From the sequence record OR427838.1: a DNA stretch of 64,000 nt. The stretch is one strand, 5' to 3'. The position numbers and the translations under genes are program-made. The first letter of the stretch is position 1. The number at the start of each line of letters is the position of its first letter. Origin of the DNA: Escherichia phage fDHCT2. Positions 1,533 through 37,317 of the stretch are shown piece by piece. The notes beneath the pieces were generated by a model. That model worked only from the letters and a program-made list of their open reading frames with translations. It made no database searches and was not told where the DNA came from.

Positions 1533-2551
1533 CGCGTAACCTCATTATAAAGTTGTGCAGCCATGGTTTTGAGGGCCTTAACGTCATCTTCGGTATGTCC
1601 ATCTGGTAAAGCATCGATATAATCATACATCATATCCAAGAGGGACTTAACTTCATCTTCCTCTTCAGAATCATCGATATCAACGCTGTTATCTACCTTA
1701 GACACAATACGTAAAGAGTGAACAACCTTTTCAAGCTCTGATTCGAACTTAGTAAGACCGTCATCGATTTTATCGACTATAACACGAACTGCGATATTTG
1801 TAAAATCTTTGTAATCGATAGTCGCGTTAGGATAATGAATCTTACGATGCCAACAGGTTTCATTAATGATGAAATCCATTTTATGAGTTTCGGTATCGAA
1901 AATCCAGAAACCACGAGGGTCGTTCTCATCACCTGCAGTCAGGGTCCATGGAGTACCAATGTACTTAACGTTTGCTGCATCAGAAATAGTGTGGAAGTGG
2001 CCTGACCAAACTTGCTTATACTTTTTAAGGAAATCAGGTTCTAAACCATGGGATTTCATTCCTTTATAGAAATAGAAACCATTTAATTCCCAATGCCCAA
2101 TACAGAAATCTGCTGTGGTATTTTTGATATGGTCCATGATATCGGTCGTGTTTTCTTCACACATCCATGGAATCAAATCAATTTCGGTGCCATCAAAGTT
2201 AACCGTAGTAGGTTTTTCAATAACCTTGATATGGTCATATTTACCCAGAACTTCAGAAGCAGCATTAGGAGTCAAGGTATTTTTGTAGTGCATATCATGA
2301 TTACCAACAACGGTATACATGGTAATGCCATTAGCTTTAAGCAAATCAGAGATTTCGCGAGCGAATTCCATGCACTTGTGGGTAATTGCTTTACGAACAT
2401 CAAAGATATCACCGTATTGAATCCATACAGTAATGCCATTTGCTTTAGAATAATCAATAGCGTCTTGGATACCTTGACGTTGGATATTTTGTACCCACAC
2501 ATCATCAGCCTTAACTCCAAGGTGCCAGTCACCGGTGTTTAATATTTTCAT
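1529..2551 (-). CDS. 47: Recombination endonuclease subunit gp47 (Mre11/SbcD-like metallophosphoesterase)
   Basis: MKILNTGDWHLG N-terminus, GNHD and GHFH phosphoesterase motifs; start placed at internal Met (track ORF begins 9 codons upstream). Confidence 0.9.
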   Translation of the reverse strand: MKILNTGDWHLGVKADDVWVQNIQRQGIQDAIDYSKANGITVWIQYGDIFDVRKAITHKCMEFAREISDLLKANGITMYTVVGNHDMHYKNTLTPNAASEVLGKYDHIKVIEKPTTVNFDGTEIDLIPWMCEENTTDIMDHIKNTTADFCIGHWELNGFYFYKGMKSHGLEPDFLKKYKQVWSGHFHTISDAANVKYIGTPWTLTAGDENDPRGFWIFDTETHKMDFIINETCWHRKIHYPNATIDYKDFTNIAVRVIVDKIDDGLTKFESELEKVVHSLRIVSKVDNSVDIDDSEEEDEVKSLLDMMYDYIDALPDGHTEDDVKALKTMAAQLYNEVTR

Positions 2552-2693
2552 AAGCCAAGCGCCGTTATCGAAATACAAAATAAAATTATTGAAATGAACC
2601 CGTCAGAAGTGGAAAAGAATCCTATCCAACAAGCTCTTGTGAATGTGTAGAATGCCATGAATAACACGACATATCCTAAAAATAATTCCATAT
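2548..2693 (-). CDS. small hydrophobic peptide (~47 aa)
   Basis: SD gaggag + ATG; stop overlaps gp47 start (ATGA); below 60-aa track cutoff. Confidence 0.3.
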
Positions 2694-2711
2694 GTTCTCC
2701 TCAGTTGGTTC

Positions 2712-2740
2712 ATTTTATCATCCGAATATAAAGCAAAAAA
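2712..2740 (-). promoter_or_regulatory. candidate MotA-dependent middle promoter (GCTTTA box, 11 nt, TAAAAT)
   Basis: minus-strand ttttttGCTTTAtattcggatgaTAAAAT immediately after terminator T-run. Confidence 0.3.
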
Positions 2741-2754
2741 GGAGCCTAAGCTCC
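2735..2754 (-). terminator. rho-independent terminator
   Basis: minus-strand ggagcttaggctcc hairpin followed by TTTTTT. Confidence 0.5.
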
Positions 2755-2977
2755 TTTACCAATTAATACACCGTACAGAGGTTCGTGATTAGACCTGAAC
2801 TTGATAGGCTTATAGGTAATAGTACCTTCATTTTCCGCTTTAATACGAGCAGCTTCAAATTTAAGTATCATCTCATTTTTGTCAGATTTAATCTTATCAA
2901 AATCCGTCGAATTCGTCATTCATAAAACCTCTTAAACTTTTTCGTATTCGTCATTCATTAGCCTGCAGTCCATGTTA

Positions 2978-3178
2978 TCATCGCTGCCACCATTTCTTAA
3001 GTTGATGAGAATCTACCCAAACCTTGGCTACAGGTTCAATCTGAAAAATTCCATCAGAATACTGACCAACCATTTTGTATTCGGTTTCGGACTGCTTAAT
3101 ACAGATATTACCGTATGAGCGAAGTCTGAAAGCGGCTCCAACAAGAAGCCGTTTAAAGGGTTTATTTACTAAGGCCAT
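2978..3178 (-). CDS. hypothetical protein
   Basis: 66-aa ORF in tight minus-strand array. Confidence 0.4.
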   Translation of the reverse strand: MALVNKPFKRLLVGAAFRLRSYGNICIKQSETEYKMVGQYSDGIFQIEPVAKVWVDSHQLKKWWQR

Positions 3179-23460: not shown

Positions 23461-23760
23461 TTAGAAAGAACCAGAACCTCTAATTGTGTTCTGGCGACCT
23501 TTATTTTCCAATTCGGAATGGTCGATTTCGTAGGCTTGTGCTACACCAAAAGCCTTTTTAACTTTAGCTAAAGAGCCTTTAGATGTAACAATATTAAAAG
23601 TATTACCTTTGGTAAAATCAACCAAATCCACTTGTACACCTTGTTTACCGAGGCTTGCTACAATAGCATCAACATATTCTTGGTCTAAGGTGCCTTGGAC
23701 GCCTATTTGGAATGCTTTAGGAGCTTTGGCTTCTGTAATAAATTCTTGATAAGTTTTCAT
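23461..23760 (-). CDS. internal-protein-like protein with capsid targeting sequence
   Basis: N-terminus [11 protein letters not shown] as in T4 IPI/IPII/IPIII; third CTS gene next to denV. Confidence 0.55.
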   Translation of the reverse strand: MKTYQEFITEAKAPKAFQIGVQGTLDQEYVDAIVASLGKQGVQVDLVDFTKGNTFNIVTSKGSLAKVKKAFGVAQAYEIDHSELENKGRQNTIRGSGSF

Positions 23761-24279: not shown

Positions 24280-24582
24280 TTATTTACCTTTAATTGCTTT
24301 AGCTGCTTCGGTAGCCGCTTGCTGAAGGTCATCCATAGTCATGCCGAACTTAGAAGCAAAGTTATCAATTTTCTTTTCGACAGAATTCAAAGGCTTGGCC
24401 TGTTTACCTTCATTAGCGCCAGGAAGAGCGAGAATACGCTCTTTGTCAATATAAAGGCTTACAAGTTTCTTACGGTCTTTATCGGACAAATCATGAAATG
24501 AATGAGCCTTTTTATTTATAGCGGCTTCTAATTTACCCGCAGTTACGCGGGCTTCAGTGATAAATTCTTGATAGGTTTTCAT
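24280..24582 (-). CDS. ipII: Internal protein II
   Basis: 100 aa, [14 protein letters not shown]; between denV and ipIII as in T4. Confidence 0.8.
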   Translation of the reverse strand: MKTYQEFITEARVTAGKLEAAINKKAHSFHDLSDKDRKKLVSLYIDKERILALPGANEGKQAKPLNSVEKKIDNFASKFGMTMDDLQQAATEAAKAIKGK

Positions 24583-24623: not shown

Positions 24624-25220
24624 TTAATTACCACGGGCTGCATTAGCAACGGCGTAAGCGTACTGAATATTAGCGTCTTTAAACGTACCTTTAGAGGTAT
24701 CTATTTCTGCCTTAAAGCCGCCTTTAGCCATAACATCGGCAAATTCTTTACGGAAAGCCATTGCATCAAGACCTTTCCATGATGATTTGTGCTTGGCAAA
24801 TTCAAGACCAGCGAAGTTGACAGCCTTAGCCAATTTATTATCAATAGTCCATTTACCTGCTTTAGGTACAACTACCGGGCCTTTTTGTTTAGAGAACAGT
24901 TTTAAATTCCAGCGACGAAGGTCGCCGTCAGCTTTAACAAAAGCTGCGTCCAAGTTACTAGCAACAACATCCTGAATATGGCCAAATTTAAGCCCATCAG
25001 CTTCAATATTTAGGTCGTTACGCCAGCGAAGTCCTTCCCAGGCGAAAGCTTTAAAGTCAGAAGCTTTTGTAGCTAAATACCGTTCAATAGGAGCTGTTTT
25101 AGCGTCAAAACCATTTCCTGGGTTGTCAACGCCGTTTCCTCGGTAGGTCCACTCATCTTTATTAATGCCTTGGACCTTTCCTACAGAAGCTTCGGCGATA
25201 AATTCTTTATACGTTTTCAT
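24624..25220 (-). CDS. ipIII: Internal protein III
   Basis: 198 aa, CTS MKTYKEFIAEA; adjacent to e as in T4. Confidence 0.75.
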   Translation of the reverse strand: MKTYKEFIAEASVGKVQGINKDEWTYRGNGVDNPGNGFDAKTAPIERYLATKASDFKAFAWEGLRWRNDLNIEADGLKFGHIQDVVASNLDAAFVKADGDLRRWNLKLFSKQKGPVVVPKAGKWTIDNKLAKAVNFAGLEFAKHKSSWKGLDAMAFRKEFADVMAKGGFKAEIDTSKGTFKDANIQYAYAVANAARGN

Positions 25221-32967: not shown

Positions 32968-33366
32968 TTATTTCATTTTTGCGAGGCAAATTTCATTGGC
33001 TTCCCATTGAGCTTGCTTAATAATAGCTTTGGATACAGGAGCCCTTTGGCCATAAGTTTTTGACGTTGAGAGAACAATACATTTGTTTGCTTCATTATGC
33101 CAGCCCCATGATTTTTCGCCATGGGTGCCTTTAACTACAGCTGACACCTCAACAGAGCAACCACCATCAGAAATCTTGGTTTCGACAATCCATTCATTTC
33201 TCTCAGCAGCTTCAAGTTCCAATCTAGTTTTTTCTTCATACATCGCGGCCCAATCAGTTTTTGCCAAGTTGAAAGTAAGAGCTTTCTCTAATTCTTTGGC
33301 ATATTTTTGTTGTTCAGGTGTTAATGAATTATACAACTCTTGCATTTCTTTATCTTCGATATTCAT
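32968..33366 (-). CDS. hypothetical protein (132 aa)
   Basis: ORF downstream of early promoter. Confidence 0.5.
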   Translation of the reverse strand: MNIEDKEMQELYNSLTPEQQKYAKELEKALTFNLAKTDWAAMYEEKTRLELEAAERNEWIVETKISDGGCSVEVSAVVKGTHGEKSWGWHNEANKCIVLSTSKTYGQRAPVSKAIIKQAQWEANEICLAKMK

Positions 33367-33391
33367 TATGATCTCCTCAAATTATGGGCTC

Positions 33392-33421
33392 ATAATATCT
33401 TAATCATGGGCCCATGTAAAC
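33392..33421 (-). promoter_or_regulatory. T4-type early sigma70 promoter
   Basis: GTTTAC-18nt-TATTAT; atgggc/gcccat inverted repeat flanks -10. Confidence 0.5.
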
Positions 33422-33424
33422 GTT

Positions 33425-33688
33425 TTATTTCATATTATTGAAATAATCTTCCGCATCAAAATCGTTATCATGATAAACTTTGGTAGACAATTTAACATAA
33501 CCTTCGGCGGCGAACATATTAACCACAACCTTTACAGTATACCATTGTCCATCATCATTACCCATTACTGCATAGGTTTCAAATATGGGATGGTCATCAC
33601 CGATAACTTTAATATCGTTAACTGTAGCACCAAATTCTTCAGGAACGCATTTCATAAAGAAATTAAACAATTCACCATAATTATCCAT
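33425..33688 (-). CDS. hypothetical protein (~87 aa)
   Basis: start at MDNYGELF downstream of early promoter. Confidence 0.5.
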   Translation of the reverse strand: MDNYGELFNFFMKCVPEEFGATVNDIKVIGDDHPIFETYAVMGNDDGQWYTVKVVVNMFAAEGYVKLSTKVYHDNDFDAEDYFNNMK

Positions 33689-33722
33689 TTTACTCTCCTT
33701 CACACTGTTGTTTTGATAGGTC

Positions 33723-33751
33723 TATAGTATCATGTTCTACGAAAGAGTAAA
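33723..33751 (-). promoter_or_regulatory. T4-type early sigma70 promoter
   Basis: GTTTAC-17nt-TACTAT with TGa. Confidence 0.55.
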
Positions 33752-33774
33752 CATCTTTTTTAAACTTTTTAGAA

Positions 33775-33803
33775 ACAAAAAAGGCCCAACCTTTCGGAAG
33801 GGC
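33775..33803 (-). terminator. rho-independent terminator (5-bp stem, 12-nt loop)
   Basis: minus-strand ggccc-ttccgaaaggtt-gggcc + TTTTTT. Confidence 0.45.
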
Positions 33804-33895
33804 CTAGAATCAGTTCTTGTAGAACCGGAATGGGTTTATGTGGAAGGCTAACATAGCTTTTATTTTAAAAGTTTCATATATTTCTCTAAGTTAAC

Positions 33896-33916
33896 CAAAA
33901 AAGCCCCAGACGGGGC
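33896..33916 (-). terminator. rho-independent terminator
   Basis: minus-strand gcccc-gtct-ggggc + TTTTTT immediately after the upstream CDS stop. Confidence 0.65.
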
Positions 33917-33921
33917 TTTCG

Positions 33922-34386
33922 TTATTTGATTTGTTTAGCAGACCAGATACGGTCTTTGATGATTTTCTGAATATCTTCAACATACTCTAAGTCGTGAGCA
34001 TGCGGATTATCTTTGAAGCTATGTGCTCGTGCCAGTTTCTGGCCTTCTGTTTTGATTACTAAAAGCTCTTTAAGAATTGCTTCATACTTAGAAATGATTC
34101 CTTTAGCGATATTTTTTTCTTGAGCGGCTTTAGGGTCCGCTTTTGACGCAGGTGCTTTACCTGTAGCTTTCTGGAACAATTCACCTGATGCAGCTAGGCT
34201 TTTAAAAACTCGGCTAACAGTATTAGCATTAGTAAAACCTTCGGCTTTAAAATCTTTAATAAAACGGAAACGTTCTTCATCAGAGGCGTCTTTGTAAGAA
34301 TATTTACCTGCTTGAATTGCTGCAATCGCGGCGGCTTTTACATCTGAACTAGATTGTTCGGTCAAAAATTCATTGTAAGTTTTCAT
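33922..34386 (-). CDS. internal-protein-like protein with capsid targeting sequence (154 aa)
   Basis: N-terminus MKTYNEFLTEQ (CTS-like); Lys/Ala-rich. Confidence 0.55.
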   Translation of the reverse strand: MKTYNEFLTEQSSSDVKAAAIAAIQAGKYSYKDASDEERFRFIKDFKAEGFTNANTVSRVFKSLAASGELFQKATGKAPASKADPKAAQEKNIAKGIISKYEAILKELLVIKTEGQKLARAHSFKDNPHAHDLEYVEDIQKIIKDRIWSAKQIK

Positions 34387-34427
34387 TATTATTTCCTAAG
34401 TTAATTAACTTATCTATTTATTATGCC

Positions 34428-34454
34428 AAAAAGCCCCAACCTTTCGGAAGGGGC
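34428..34454 (-). terminator. rho-independent terminator after the tRNA/stable-RNA cluster
   Basis: minus-strand gcccc-ttccgaaaggtt-ggggc + TTTTT. Confidence 0.5.
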
Positions 34455-34469
34455 TATGCCTTGCGGTAA

Positions 34470-34560
34470 CCTTGTCGGGGTTCCACCTGCTAGGCAAGTG
34501 TTTGTACGAAACGCCAGGATTCGAACCCGGTTATTAAGCAGTTGACGCTACTCAATATTT
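34470..34560 (-). ncRNA. tRNA-like / stable-RNA candidate (no clean cloverleaf)
   Basis: minus-strand T-arm-like ccgggTTCGAATcctgg with pairable acceptor-like ends cggaacg/cgtttcg, but no convincing D or anticodon arm. Confidence 0.25.
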
Positions 34561-34836
34561 TTAAAAGGCCATATCTCGACCATATCCGAACGTTCCGTCA
34601 AAAACGCTACTCGGCTTACGGCAAAGATATTTCCTCGAATCGATAATTAGGTGCGCCGTTTCTGCTGTGATGTAAGGGGACATTAACAGATCGTAAAGAT
34701 TTGTTAATGCCAGTCCTTACTCAGGGAACATCAGTCCGACGACTTACCGGTAGCGACCCGGTTTCTTGTTTGTTGCGCCGGTGAATGCTGGTAATCAGTC
34801 TTCATACGACGGCTTGACTATATAATAGTCTTCATT

Positions 34837-34911
34837 TGGTATCCCGCCCTGGGATCGAACCAGGACCGCAAACTTAGAAGGATCGTATGCTATCCATTAC
34901 ACCAGCGGGAC
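34837..34911 (-). tRNA. tRNA-Arg (anticodon UCU)
   Basis: hand-folded cloverleaf: acceptor gtcccgc/gcgggat, anticodon loop cuUCUaa, T-arm cctgg-TTCGATC-ccagg, encoded CCA. Confidence 0.7.
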
Positions 34912-34916
34912 ATAGT

Positions 34917-34993
34917 TGGTGACCCGGACCAGATTTGAACTGGTAACCTTTCCCTTATGAGGGGACTGCTGCTAACCATTGAGCTACAGGGCC
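34917..34993 (-). tRNA. tRNA with CAU anticodon (Ile2-lysidine type or Met)
   Basis: resembles E. coli tRNA-Ile2: anticodon loop cuCAUaa, T-arm accag-TTCAAAT-ctggt, encoded CCA; acceptor stem has one mismatch. Confidence 0.6.
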
Positions 34994-34998
34994 TTAAT

Positions 34999-35265
34999 TT
35001 AAATTACAAATCCAGCAGGGGCATTATCATCTTTAGCCATGTGCTGAATTGTATGATAAGTCATTTCTTCAGGAGCAACCAGATAAGCCGCAACGTTAAC
35101 TAGTGGAATTATTTTTGGTTTAGCGAACGTGCTATCAGAAATTGCCATAAAGGGCTCGCCGTCGGTCTCAACTTCGCCAAATTGGCACTCGTAAGAAATA
35201 GAACAACGTTTGGTGGTGGTTGTCTTGGTTTTAGGGTCATAAAAAGCTAATTTTAATACTAACAT
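34999..35265 (-). CDS. hypothetical protein
   Basis: 88-aa ORF just upstream of the tRNAs. Confidence 0.45.
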   Translation of the reverse strand: MLVLKLAFYDPKTKTTTTKRCSISYECQFGEVETDGEPFMAISDSTFAKPKIIPLVNVAAYLVAPEEMTYHTIQHMAKDDNAPAGFVI

Positions 35266-35443
35266 AATACCTCAAATAAAATTAAGTAAAGTAAGTTTGA
35301 TTAATAGACCTTGTCTATTATGAAAGGCTCTTTGAGGGAAGAACCTTTGGTAATAGAGGGTTACTTAATAATGTTAGAGTAATAATATCACATTACTCTT
35401 AAAGCATATTACTATTTTTAGGAATAGTCTGGTCAAATTTGAT

Positions 35444-36370: not shown

Positions 36371-37317
<947 letters not shown>

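Follow-up and report, generated by a model that had tools for sequence, protein, structure and literature searches.

A putative capsid-targeted internal head protein encoded by a late gene cassette downstream of the tRNA/rnaC block of a Dhakavirus

The gene, its transcription unit and its flanking repeat

The DNA analysed here, called the window throughout, is a stretch of 64,000 nucleotides of Escherichia phage fDHCT2 (OR427838.1). The phage is a Dhakavirus, a T4-like coliphage, and the 3.8 kb round the gene under study are about 95% identical to UGJNEcP3, QL01, PSD2002 and WG01. In the order in which they are read on the minus strand, the main features of the locus are as follows.

34837-34993, tRNAs
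34650-34769, homologue of T4 rnaD, by alignment with T4, RB32 and WG01
34505-34643, homologue of T4 rnaC, by alignment with T4, RB32 and WG01
34428..34454, minus strand, stem-loop SL1, GCCCCTTCCGAAAGGTTGGGGC followed by T5, with a GAAA loop; located by folding and conserved in T4, RB32 and WG01
34415..34422, minus strand, putative late promoter box AATAAATA, the A(-13) variant of TATAAATA; read from the sequence
34394..34397, minus strand, ribosome-binding site AGGA, 7 nt 5' of the ATG; read from the sequence
33922..34386, minus strand, complete ORF of family PHROG 2280, 154 aa, ATG start, stop codon included
33897..33919, minus strand, intrinsic terminator of the gene, AAAGCCCC-GTCT-GGGGCTTT followed by TTTTTT; -16.7 kcal/mol, z = -3.66
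33778..33804, minus strand, stem-loop SL2, GGCCCTTCCGAAAGGTTGGGCC followed by a T-run; second copy of the flanking direct repeat

The ORF at 33922-34386 is a real gene, since comparison with its Tequatrovirus orthologues gives a dN/dS of 0.08-0.09 (dN 0.14-0.16, dS 1.5-1.9), which corresponds to purifying selection at a locus whose synonymous sites are saturated. Its position, the length of its product (154 aa) and the N-terminus of that product are exactly those given in a preliminary description made from the letters alone. The product starts MKTYNEFLTEQSSSDVKAAA (MKTYNEFLTE; as a longer start, MKTYNEFLTEQSSSDV), and an upstream in-frame alternative start is absent. The context of the ribosome-binding site, AACTTA(A)GGAA(A)TAAT, is common to this gene and to the gene starting at 23760, which likewise bears a capsid targeting sequence (CTS).

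Upstream of the gene, SL1 is the terminator that ends the tRNA/rnaD/rnaC unit. The preliminary description had called it a terminator of the tRNA cluster; the hairpin is real, but it follows the rnaD and rnaC homologues and not directly the tRNAs. Within 33300-35300, Rfam recognised two tRNAs only, and a weak Phe-leader match at 33894-33964 was discarded as being the terminator hairpin of the gene. Two intervals of this upstream region deserve mention in their own right. Between tRNA-Arg and the rnaD homologue, the window and WG01 share about 70 nt (34770-34836) that have no T4 counterpart. The approximately 50 nt that separate the annotated 3' end of T4 rnaC from the hairpin (34455-34504) are almost invariant in T4, RB32, WG01 and the window, so the stable RNA rnaC or its precursor may be longer than annotated.

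A box absent from the preliminary description, AATAAATA, begins three bases past the T-run of SL1 and is one mismatch away from TATAAATA, the 8-bp box of T4 late promoters; among 50 such promoters listed, 32 are perfect and 9 carry A at -13, which makes A(-13) the commonest variant (PMC2988020). The exact TATAAATA occurs in orthologous loci of four genera. WG01, slur03, RB32, phiD1 and Jiaodavirus KP1 all have it where the window has its variant, in these five loci two bases past the T-run of the hairpin, even where the hairpin sequence itself differs. It is also found upstream of gp154 of Yersinia phage fHe-Yen9-01, there 14 bases from the T-run; Marfavirus EK29 has only CATAAATA, located further upstream. 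At the other end of the gene, the strong terminator that had been placed at 33896-33916 proved to be real: its hairpin (stem GCCCC, loop GTCT, stem GGGGC, then T6) is identical in WG01, and none of 200 shuffled sequences folded as well. Because a late box after SL1, a ribosome-binding site and a terminator of its own are all present, the gene is, as far as its sequence can be read, a self-contained late transcription unit. From this box, transcription is predicted to start about 6-7 nt downstream of 34415. Expression from a late promoter would place the gene product at prohead assembly, the timing expected of a protein that co-assembles with the scaffold.

Beyond the terminator lies SL2, which differs from SL1 at 2 of 27 bases. 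The window contains no further copy, and by chance not even one would be expected. In T4 a single copy of the hairpin is present and the gene is missing, and the sequence that follows the T4 hairpin is the one that follows the second copy in RB32, whose record comments that the gene is "flanked by 34 bp imperfect direct repeat". The earlier suggestion of an independent cassette is therefore well founded, with a promoter and a terminator belonging to the gene, a flanking hairpin repeat and an empty site in both T4 and PST.

This arrangement recalls the PeSL cassettes (Arbiol 2010; Comeau 2014), whose stem-loop/promoter modules have been put forward as mediators of indels among T4-like phages (PMC4122927). 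As in those cassettes, an optional gene is inserted between repeated modules of stem-loop terminator and promoter, and related phages show an empty site with a single module copy. It differs from them in that the promoter after the upstream hairpin is of the late and not the early type, and in that the hairpin is local, with two copies in the 64 kb window, which speaks for a local duplication and not for a dispersed family; the early promoter in the upstream module and the dispersed motif that characterise PeSL were thus not found in the window.

An early-type promoter (GTTTAC, a spacer of 16-17 nt, TACTAT) occurs on the minus strand at 33724-33752, after SL2 and before e.8 (33425-33703), so that the SL2 region looks like a classical terminator/early-promoter module. 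Between the terminator of the gene and SL2, at 33860-33877 on the minus strand, a 5-codon stub (ATG AAA CTT TTA AAA TAA) is the remnant of a 184-aa gene of PHROG 2143, unknown function (WG01_138; 6510-7064 of L001), of which WG01 and UGJNEcP3 have intact copies. A deletion of about 500 bp has struck this neighbouring locus in the window phage, leaving the first 17 nt and approximately the last 60 nt.

Capsid targeting sequence and predicted mature protein

The product can be divided into a short N-terminal propeptide and a basic body, and four further CTS-bearing ORFs, all located by six-frame pattern matching, are present in the window.

34357..34386, minus strand, predicted CTS and propeptide MKTYNEFLTE, codons 1-10; assigned from the motif pattern and the positions of IPIII mutagenesis
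33925..34356, minus strand, predicted mature protein, residues 11-154, 144 aa, 15.9 kDa, pI 9.5
23461-23760, minus strand, CTS-bearing ORF of the PHROG 2667 internal-head-protein family
24280-24582, minus strand, CTS-bearing ORF, IPII homologue
24624-25220, minus strand, CTS-bearing ORF, IPIII homologue
36371-36643, minus strand, CTS-bearing ORF, Ip9-like, PHROG 7673, adjoining 57B

Amber-suppression work on the CTS of IPIII assigned targeting mainly to residues 4 and 7 and processing to residues 8 and 10 (PMC9026906). The product of the PHROG 2280 gene retains all four of these mutagenesis-critical positions as Y4, F7, L8 and E10, and thus has an N-terminal motif of about ten residues with both targeting positions (Y4 and F7) in place. 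A search for the pattern MK[TS][YF].[EDQ]F[IL].E in the six-frame translation of the window gave five matches, each at the start of a minus-strand ORF, and none in 200 shuffles used as control. The ORF at 23461-23760 encodes 99 aa, lies in the ipII/ipIII region and is similar to proteins annotated as Ip7 in RB32 and WG01.

The prohead protease gp21 cleaves after the Glu of (L/I)-x-E. A site of this form, with Leu at P3 and Glu at the end of residues 8-10, is found at the sequence level, and cleavage is predicted after Glu10 (L8-T9-E10, then Q11; LTE/Q, the slash marking the cut). Analysis of the cleavage site, which the preliminary description had put forward as a check on its proposal, thus yields L-T-E/Q, in agreement with the consensus; a review similarly describes gp21 as cutting after a Glu that follows a short motif. 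The mature protein would then begin QSSSDVK, and its RB32 counterpart ASSTEIQ. All homologues carry (L/I/V)-x-E at the end of the N-terminus, some with a second site 4-5 residues later. A further (L/I)-x-E motif, LKE at residues 105-107, lies inside the predicted C-terminal hairpin.

The description of the N-terminus as a variant CTS holds: beyond the four retained residues, the design M-x-x-(Y/F)-x-(E/D/Q)-(F/I)-(L/V)-x-E, or a close variant of it, is kept in five genera despite saturated synonymous sites. With predicted cuts again marked by slashes, the N-termini read MKSYAQFLNE/AVLNE/A in Tequatrovirus, MLEYSEFLKE/LFCE/A in fHe-Yen9-01, MKFKEFLAE/A in Klebsiella phage KP1, MITFNDILVE/G in Klebsiella phage AmPh_EK29 and MLKFNEFLAE/G in the homologue P0010. 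Between Dhakavirus and Tequatrovirus the synonymous sites of the CTS codons themselves are saturated (pS 0.86), which argues that the motif is held by selection on the protein and not by recent exchange of DNA. The identical decapeptide MKTYNEFLTE also begins WG01_147, a 69-aa ORF in the classical ipI locus beside 57B. This ORF (2848-3057 of L001) has a body unrelated to the PHROG 2280 protein and is absent from the window. Co-variation between the CTS of the family and that of the resident internal proteins is mixed: the two agree in WG01 and within the fHe-Yen9-01 pair and disagree in Jiaodavirus, where the N-termini of the Klebsiella homologues (MKFKEFLAE, MITFNDILVE) differ from the resident MKTY(Q/K)EF.

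The predicted mature part contains 21 K, 5 R and 23 A in its 144 residues, as the earlier characterisation of a Lys/Ala-rich body had implied, and its pI is close to that of IPII (pI 9.66) and IPIII (pI 9.56) of the window. AlphaFold2 modelled it with a pLDDT of 72.6, rising to 78.8 with a more diverse alignment, as a three-helix N-domain (residues 13-67), a linker of lower confidence (about 72-84) and an antiparallel helical hairpin (85-151). In all homologues the linker is rich in Lys, Ala and Pro, for instance TKPKPGAAKPKAAKK in KP1. NMR work has shown contacts between DNA phosphates and the lysines of internal proteins (PMC3012670), and by analogy we regard the Lys/Ala/Pro linker as a likely DNA contact.

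That the body is unlike ipI, ipII and ipIII, as first stated, was confirmed by BLASTP: once residues 1-10 had been taken off, the lowest E value against the internal proteins of the window and of T4 was 0.05. Searches of Pfam, NCBIfam and PADLOC gave no meaningful match to the window protein, a profile search against PDB sequences gave no match, and structure searches returned generic helical matches only; likeness in sequence or fold to the known type IV restriction inhibitors IPI*, Ip2 and Ip3 was not found. Residues 37-76 of the N-domain weakly match an 869-aa PPR-like repeat protein, P0016, with a summed E value of 1.7e-4 over six repeats; this was put down to a chance resemblance of helical hairpins.

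Distribution and evolution of the family

By tblastn, the family is carried by 511 phage records, at one place per record. About 70 of them are 90-100% identical to the window protein, those checked being Dhakavirus, while about 400, at 60-80% identity, contain the 157-aa Tequatrovirus form, whose first catalogue entry was RB32ORF133c; Yersinia and Klebsiella phages have more divergent forms. WG01_139 and the QL01 counterpart match the window protein at 100% identity. The window protein is assigned by PHROGs to family 2280, "unknown function" (E = 6e-53), and the families of internal virion proteins in PHROGs match its first 26-44 residues only. Every record inspected annotates the protein as "hypothetical" and none labels it an Ip, and searching the literature by locus tags and motif strings retrieved no paper describing the family. 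When 1.8 billion representative proteins were searched exhaustively with a profile, 10 matches only were obtained, with no cellular one among them except P0016.

The family extends to at least five genera (Tequatro-, Dhaka-, Teguna-, Marfa- and Jiaodavirus), with body identity down to 32-39% among distant members, and in Tequatro-, Dhaka-, Marfa- and Jiaodavirus the gene comes immediately after the tRNA/rnaC block. Its absence from T4 and PST marks it as optional; a product that is small and basic (15.9 kDa, pI 9.5), dispensable and polymorphic between close relatives is thus encoded. Within coliphages, amino-acid change is 7-20 times faster in the N-domain (dN 0.30) than in the C-terminal hairpin (dN 0.014-0.04).

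Yersinia phage fHe-Yen9-01 has two tandem paralogues, both with CTS-like N-termini: gp154 (1922-2491 of L004) starts MLQYNEFLKE and gp153 (2501-3037) starts MLEYSEFLKE, and a late promoter box is located 5' of the first paralogue only. Some Jiaodaviruses have lost the gene or carry a broken copy, whereas KP1 keeps an intact gene of 177 codons. One Jiaodavirus protein (P0013) consists of the N-domain of the family joined to the product of the next downstream gene, and ValerieMcCarty03 retains, after tRNA-Thr, only that downstream ORF (gp137, 38-409 of L011).

Proposed role and alternative explanations

Taken together, these observations are best read as those of an accessory internal head protein of T4 type that bears a CTS, a reading to which we give a probability of roughly 0.65; an anti-restriction role is proposed for it by analogy. 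Like the known T4-type internal proteins, the PHROG 2280 protein has an N-terminal CTS with an (L/I)-x-E cleavage site, a small basic Lys/Ala-rich body and a late-type promoter, and it is non-essential and polymorphic between related phages. It differs from them in a mature part of no detectable similarity and in location: the T4 ip loci adjoin e/denV or 57B, whereas the PHROG 2280 gene occupies a third locus, between rnaC and e.8. The predicted fold, with two all-helical domains, also contrasts with the compact alpha/beta fold of IPI* (PMC3012670).

A similar comparison can be made with the series Ip4-Ip12 (Ip5, Ip6, Ip7 and Ip9 being annotated in T6, RB32 and WG01) and with Bas37_0260, which are likewise recognised by the N-terminus only and have unrelated bodies; Bas37_0260 shows that a CTS-bearing orphan can be an inhibitor of a type IV restriction enzyme. 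Those genes, however, lie in the hypervariable ipI locus and are for the most part confined to close relatives, whereas PHROG 2280 has a conserved location and extends over at least five genera. The Dar proteins of phage P1 (DarA, DarB, Hdf) offer a functional parallel, being head-internal, injected with the DNA and protective against restriction (PMC12810830), although their sequences are unrelated, their packaging signal is different and they come from a different phage lineage.

In the proposed mechanism, tRNA/rnaD/rnaC transcripts would stop at SL1, and a late box of the gp55 type just after it would drive the PHROG 2280 gene. By comparison with the T4 pathway, the precursor would be made during prohead assembly, its decapeptide MKTYNEFLTE would dock it onto the scaffolding core, and the gp21 prohead protease would cut after Glu10 (L-T-E/Q). 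The 144-residue, 15.9 kDa basic and Lys-rich product would remain in the head among the packaged DNA and be ejected into the cell with it. There it may neutralise a first-line, DNA-directed host defence, by analogy most probably a type IV modification-dependent restriction enzyme, given that all four characterised CTS-bearing proteins block such enzymes: Ip1, Ip2 and Ip3 of T4 each inhibit a different GmrSD type IV restriction enzyme (PMC12373910; PMC9391042), and Bas37_0260 inhibits McrBC (bioRxiv 10.1101/2025.11.20.689424). The parts of this scheme are not equally firm. It is probable that the protein is packaged by means of its CTS, and a type IV restriction enzyme as its target is a tentative proposal drawn from analogy.

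Direct data on virions exist for Yersinia phage fD1 (phiD1), whose g140 (67942-68415, 157 aa, 17.3 kDa) is 75% identical to the window protein and is listed among the particle-associated proteins of purified virions by LC-MS/MS (PMC8309999, Table S3). Neither of the genes beside it, g138 and g139 (e.8), had its product detected in the same proteome, which is of low specificity, with 113-137 of 277 gene products counted as particle-associated, including DenV, lysozyme and NudE (PMC8309999); the data are deposited as PXD026812. The support from g140 is thus real but modest. The virion proteome of ValerieMcCarty03/04 (PMC13119998) was also considered as a source of orthologue evidence and set aside as uninformative, because ValerieMcCarty03 has lost the gene.

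The packaging step itself could be questioned if the CTS-like N-terminus were a relic of recombination between ip genes and the protein acted late in the infected cell. The ribosome-binding site and CTS DNA do resemble those of other ip genes, and all database records name the protein hypothetical. Repoila et al. (1994) reportedly attributed the shuffling of ip genes to shared segments of this kind. A relic would hardly be expected to persist where the body has fallen to 32-39% identity and synonymous sites are saturated, nor to retain all of the critical positions 4, 7, 8 and 10, and the recovery of an orthologue from purified virions further lowers the chances of this explanation, which we hold to be quite improbable. 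Still less credence is given to a tRNA- or RNA-related role, for example the shielding of tRNAs from host anticodon nucleases. It is suggested by the location directly downstream of the tRNA/rnaC block in four genera and by the weak resemblance of the N-domain to the PPR-like P0016 over its six repeats, but T4-like phages keep the same order of genes all through this region, and synteny by itself is therefore of little weight. Moreover, the gene would be transcribed separately, from a late promoter after a terminator, the P0016 match rests on a generic helical hairpin and no RNA-binding family was matched; such a role seems highly unlikely.

A packaged protein might also do its work inside the head, with no host target, as a basic DNA-associated core or condensation protein or as an assembly helper resembling the morphogenetic side of IPIII. 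The basic, Lys-rich composition with a Lys/Ala/Pro linker reminiscent of histone H1 would suit such a function, as would the presence in five genera at a fixed position with a strongly constrained C-terminal hairpin, and IPIII mutants show slower head assembly and smaller bursts (PMC9026906). Yet the heads of T4 and PST are normal without the gene, and presence/absence polymorphism, tandem duplication and a fast N-domain are more typical of genes that interact with the host, so that we consider a purely head-internal role unlikely. Several facts nevertheless count against the preferred reading: the low specificity of the fD1 proteome, the one mismatch of the window's promoter box to the consensus, the departure of the Klebsiella N-termini from the resident CTS of Jiaodavirus, the lack of any match in sequence or fold to IPI* or to an anti-restriction protein in the searches made, the location of the gene outside both classical ip loci, and a conservation across genera that far exceeds that of the known internal proteins. 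A highly specific inhibitor shaped by an arms race fits less well with such conservation, which gives some scope to a more general target or to the head-internal role.

In its most general form, the family would represent an injected internal protein shared by T4-like genera that infect several enterobacterial hosts (Escherichia, Yersinia, Klebsiella, probably Erwinia and Serratia), the first of its kind, and would be directed at a broadly conserved host function or defence. We regard this as a speculative proposal with a rather low chance of being correct. Were it true, the target would be something other than a strain-specific type IV enzyme and would be encountered within the first seconds of infection; the effector or oligomerisation module would then be the constrained C-terminal hairpin, with the fast N-domain as the adaptable part.

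Under the preferred reading of an accessory, CTS-bearing internal protein, the PHROG 2280 protein is ordinary in kind, and the evidence supports its being an unannotated member of the class of CTS-bearing internal proteins. What sets it apart is its third locus, its own putative late promoter and its wide occurrence, which make it a good candidate for testing, the injected internal proteins of T-even phages having recently been a productive source of anti-restriction factors. More than 500 sequenced phages carry the family, among them therapy candidates and BASEL phages such as AdolfPortmann and AlbertHofmann. The view of how CTS-bearing proteins work is unchanged by these results, which add a third genomic locus in which to search for them.

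The window phage has five predicted internal proteins, distributed over three loci.
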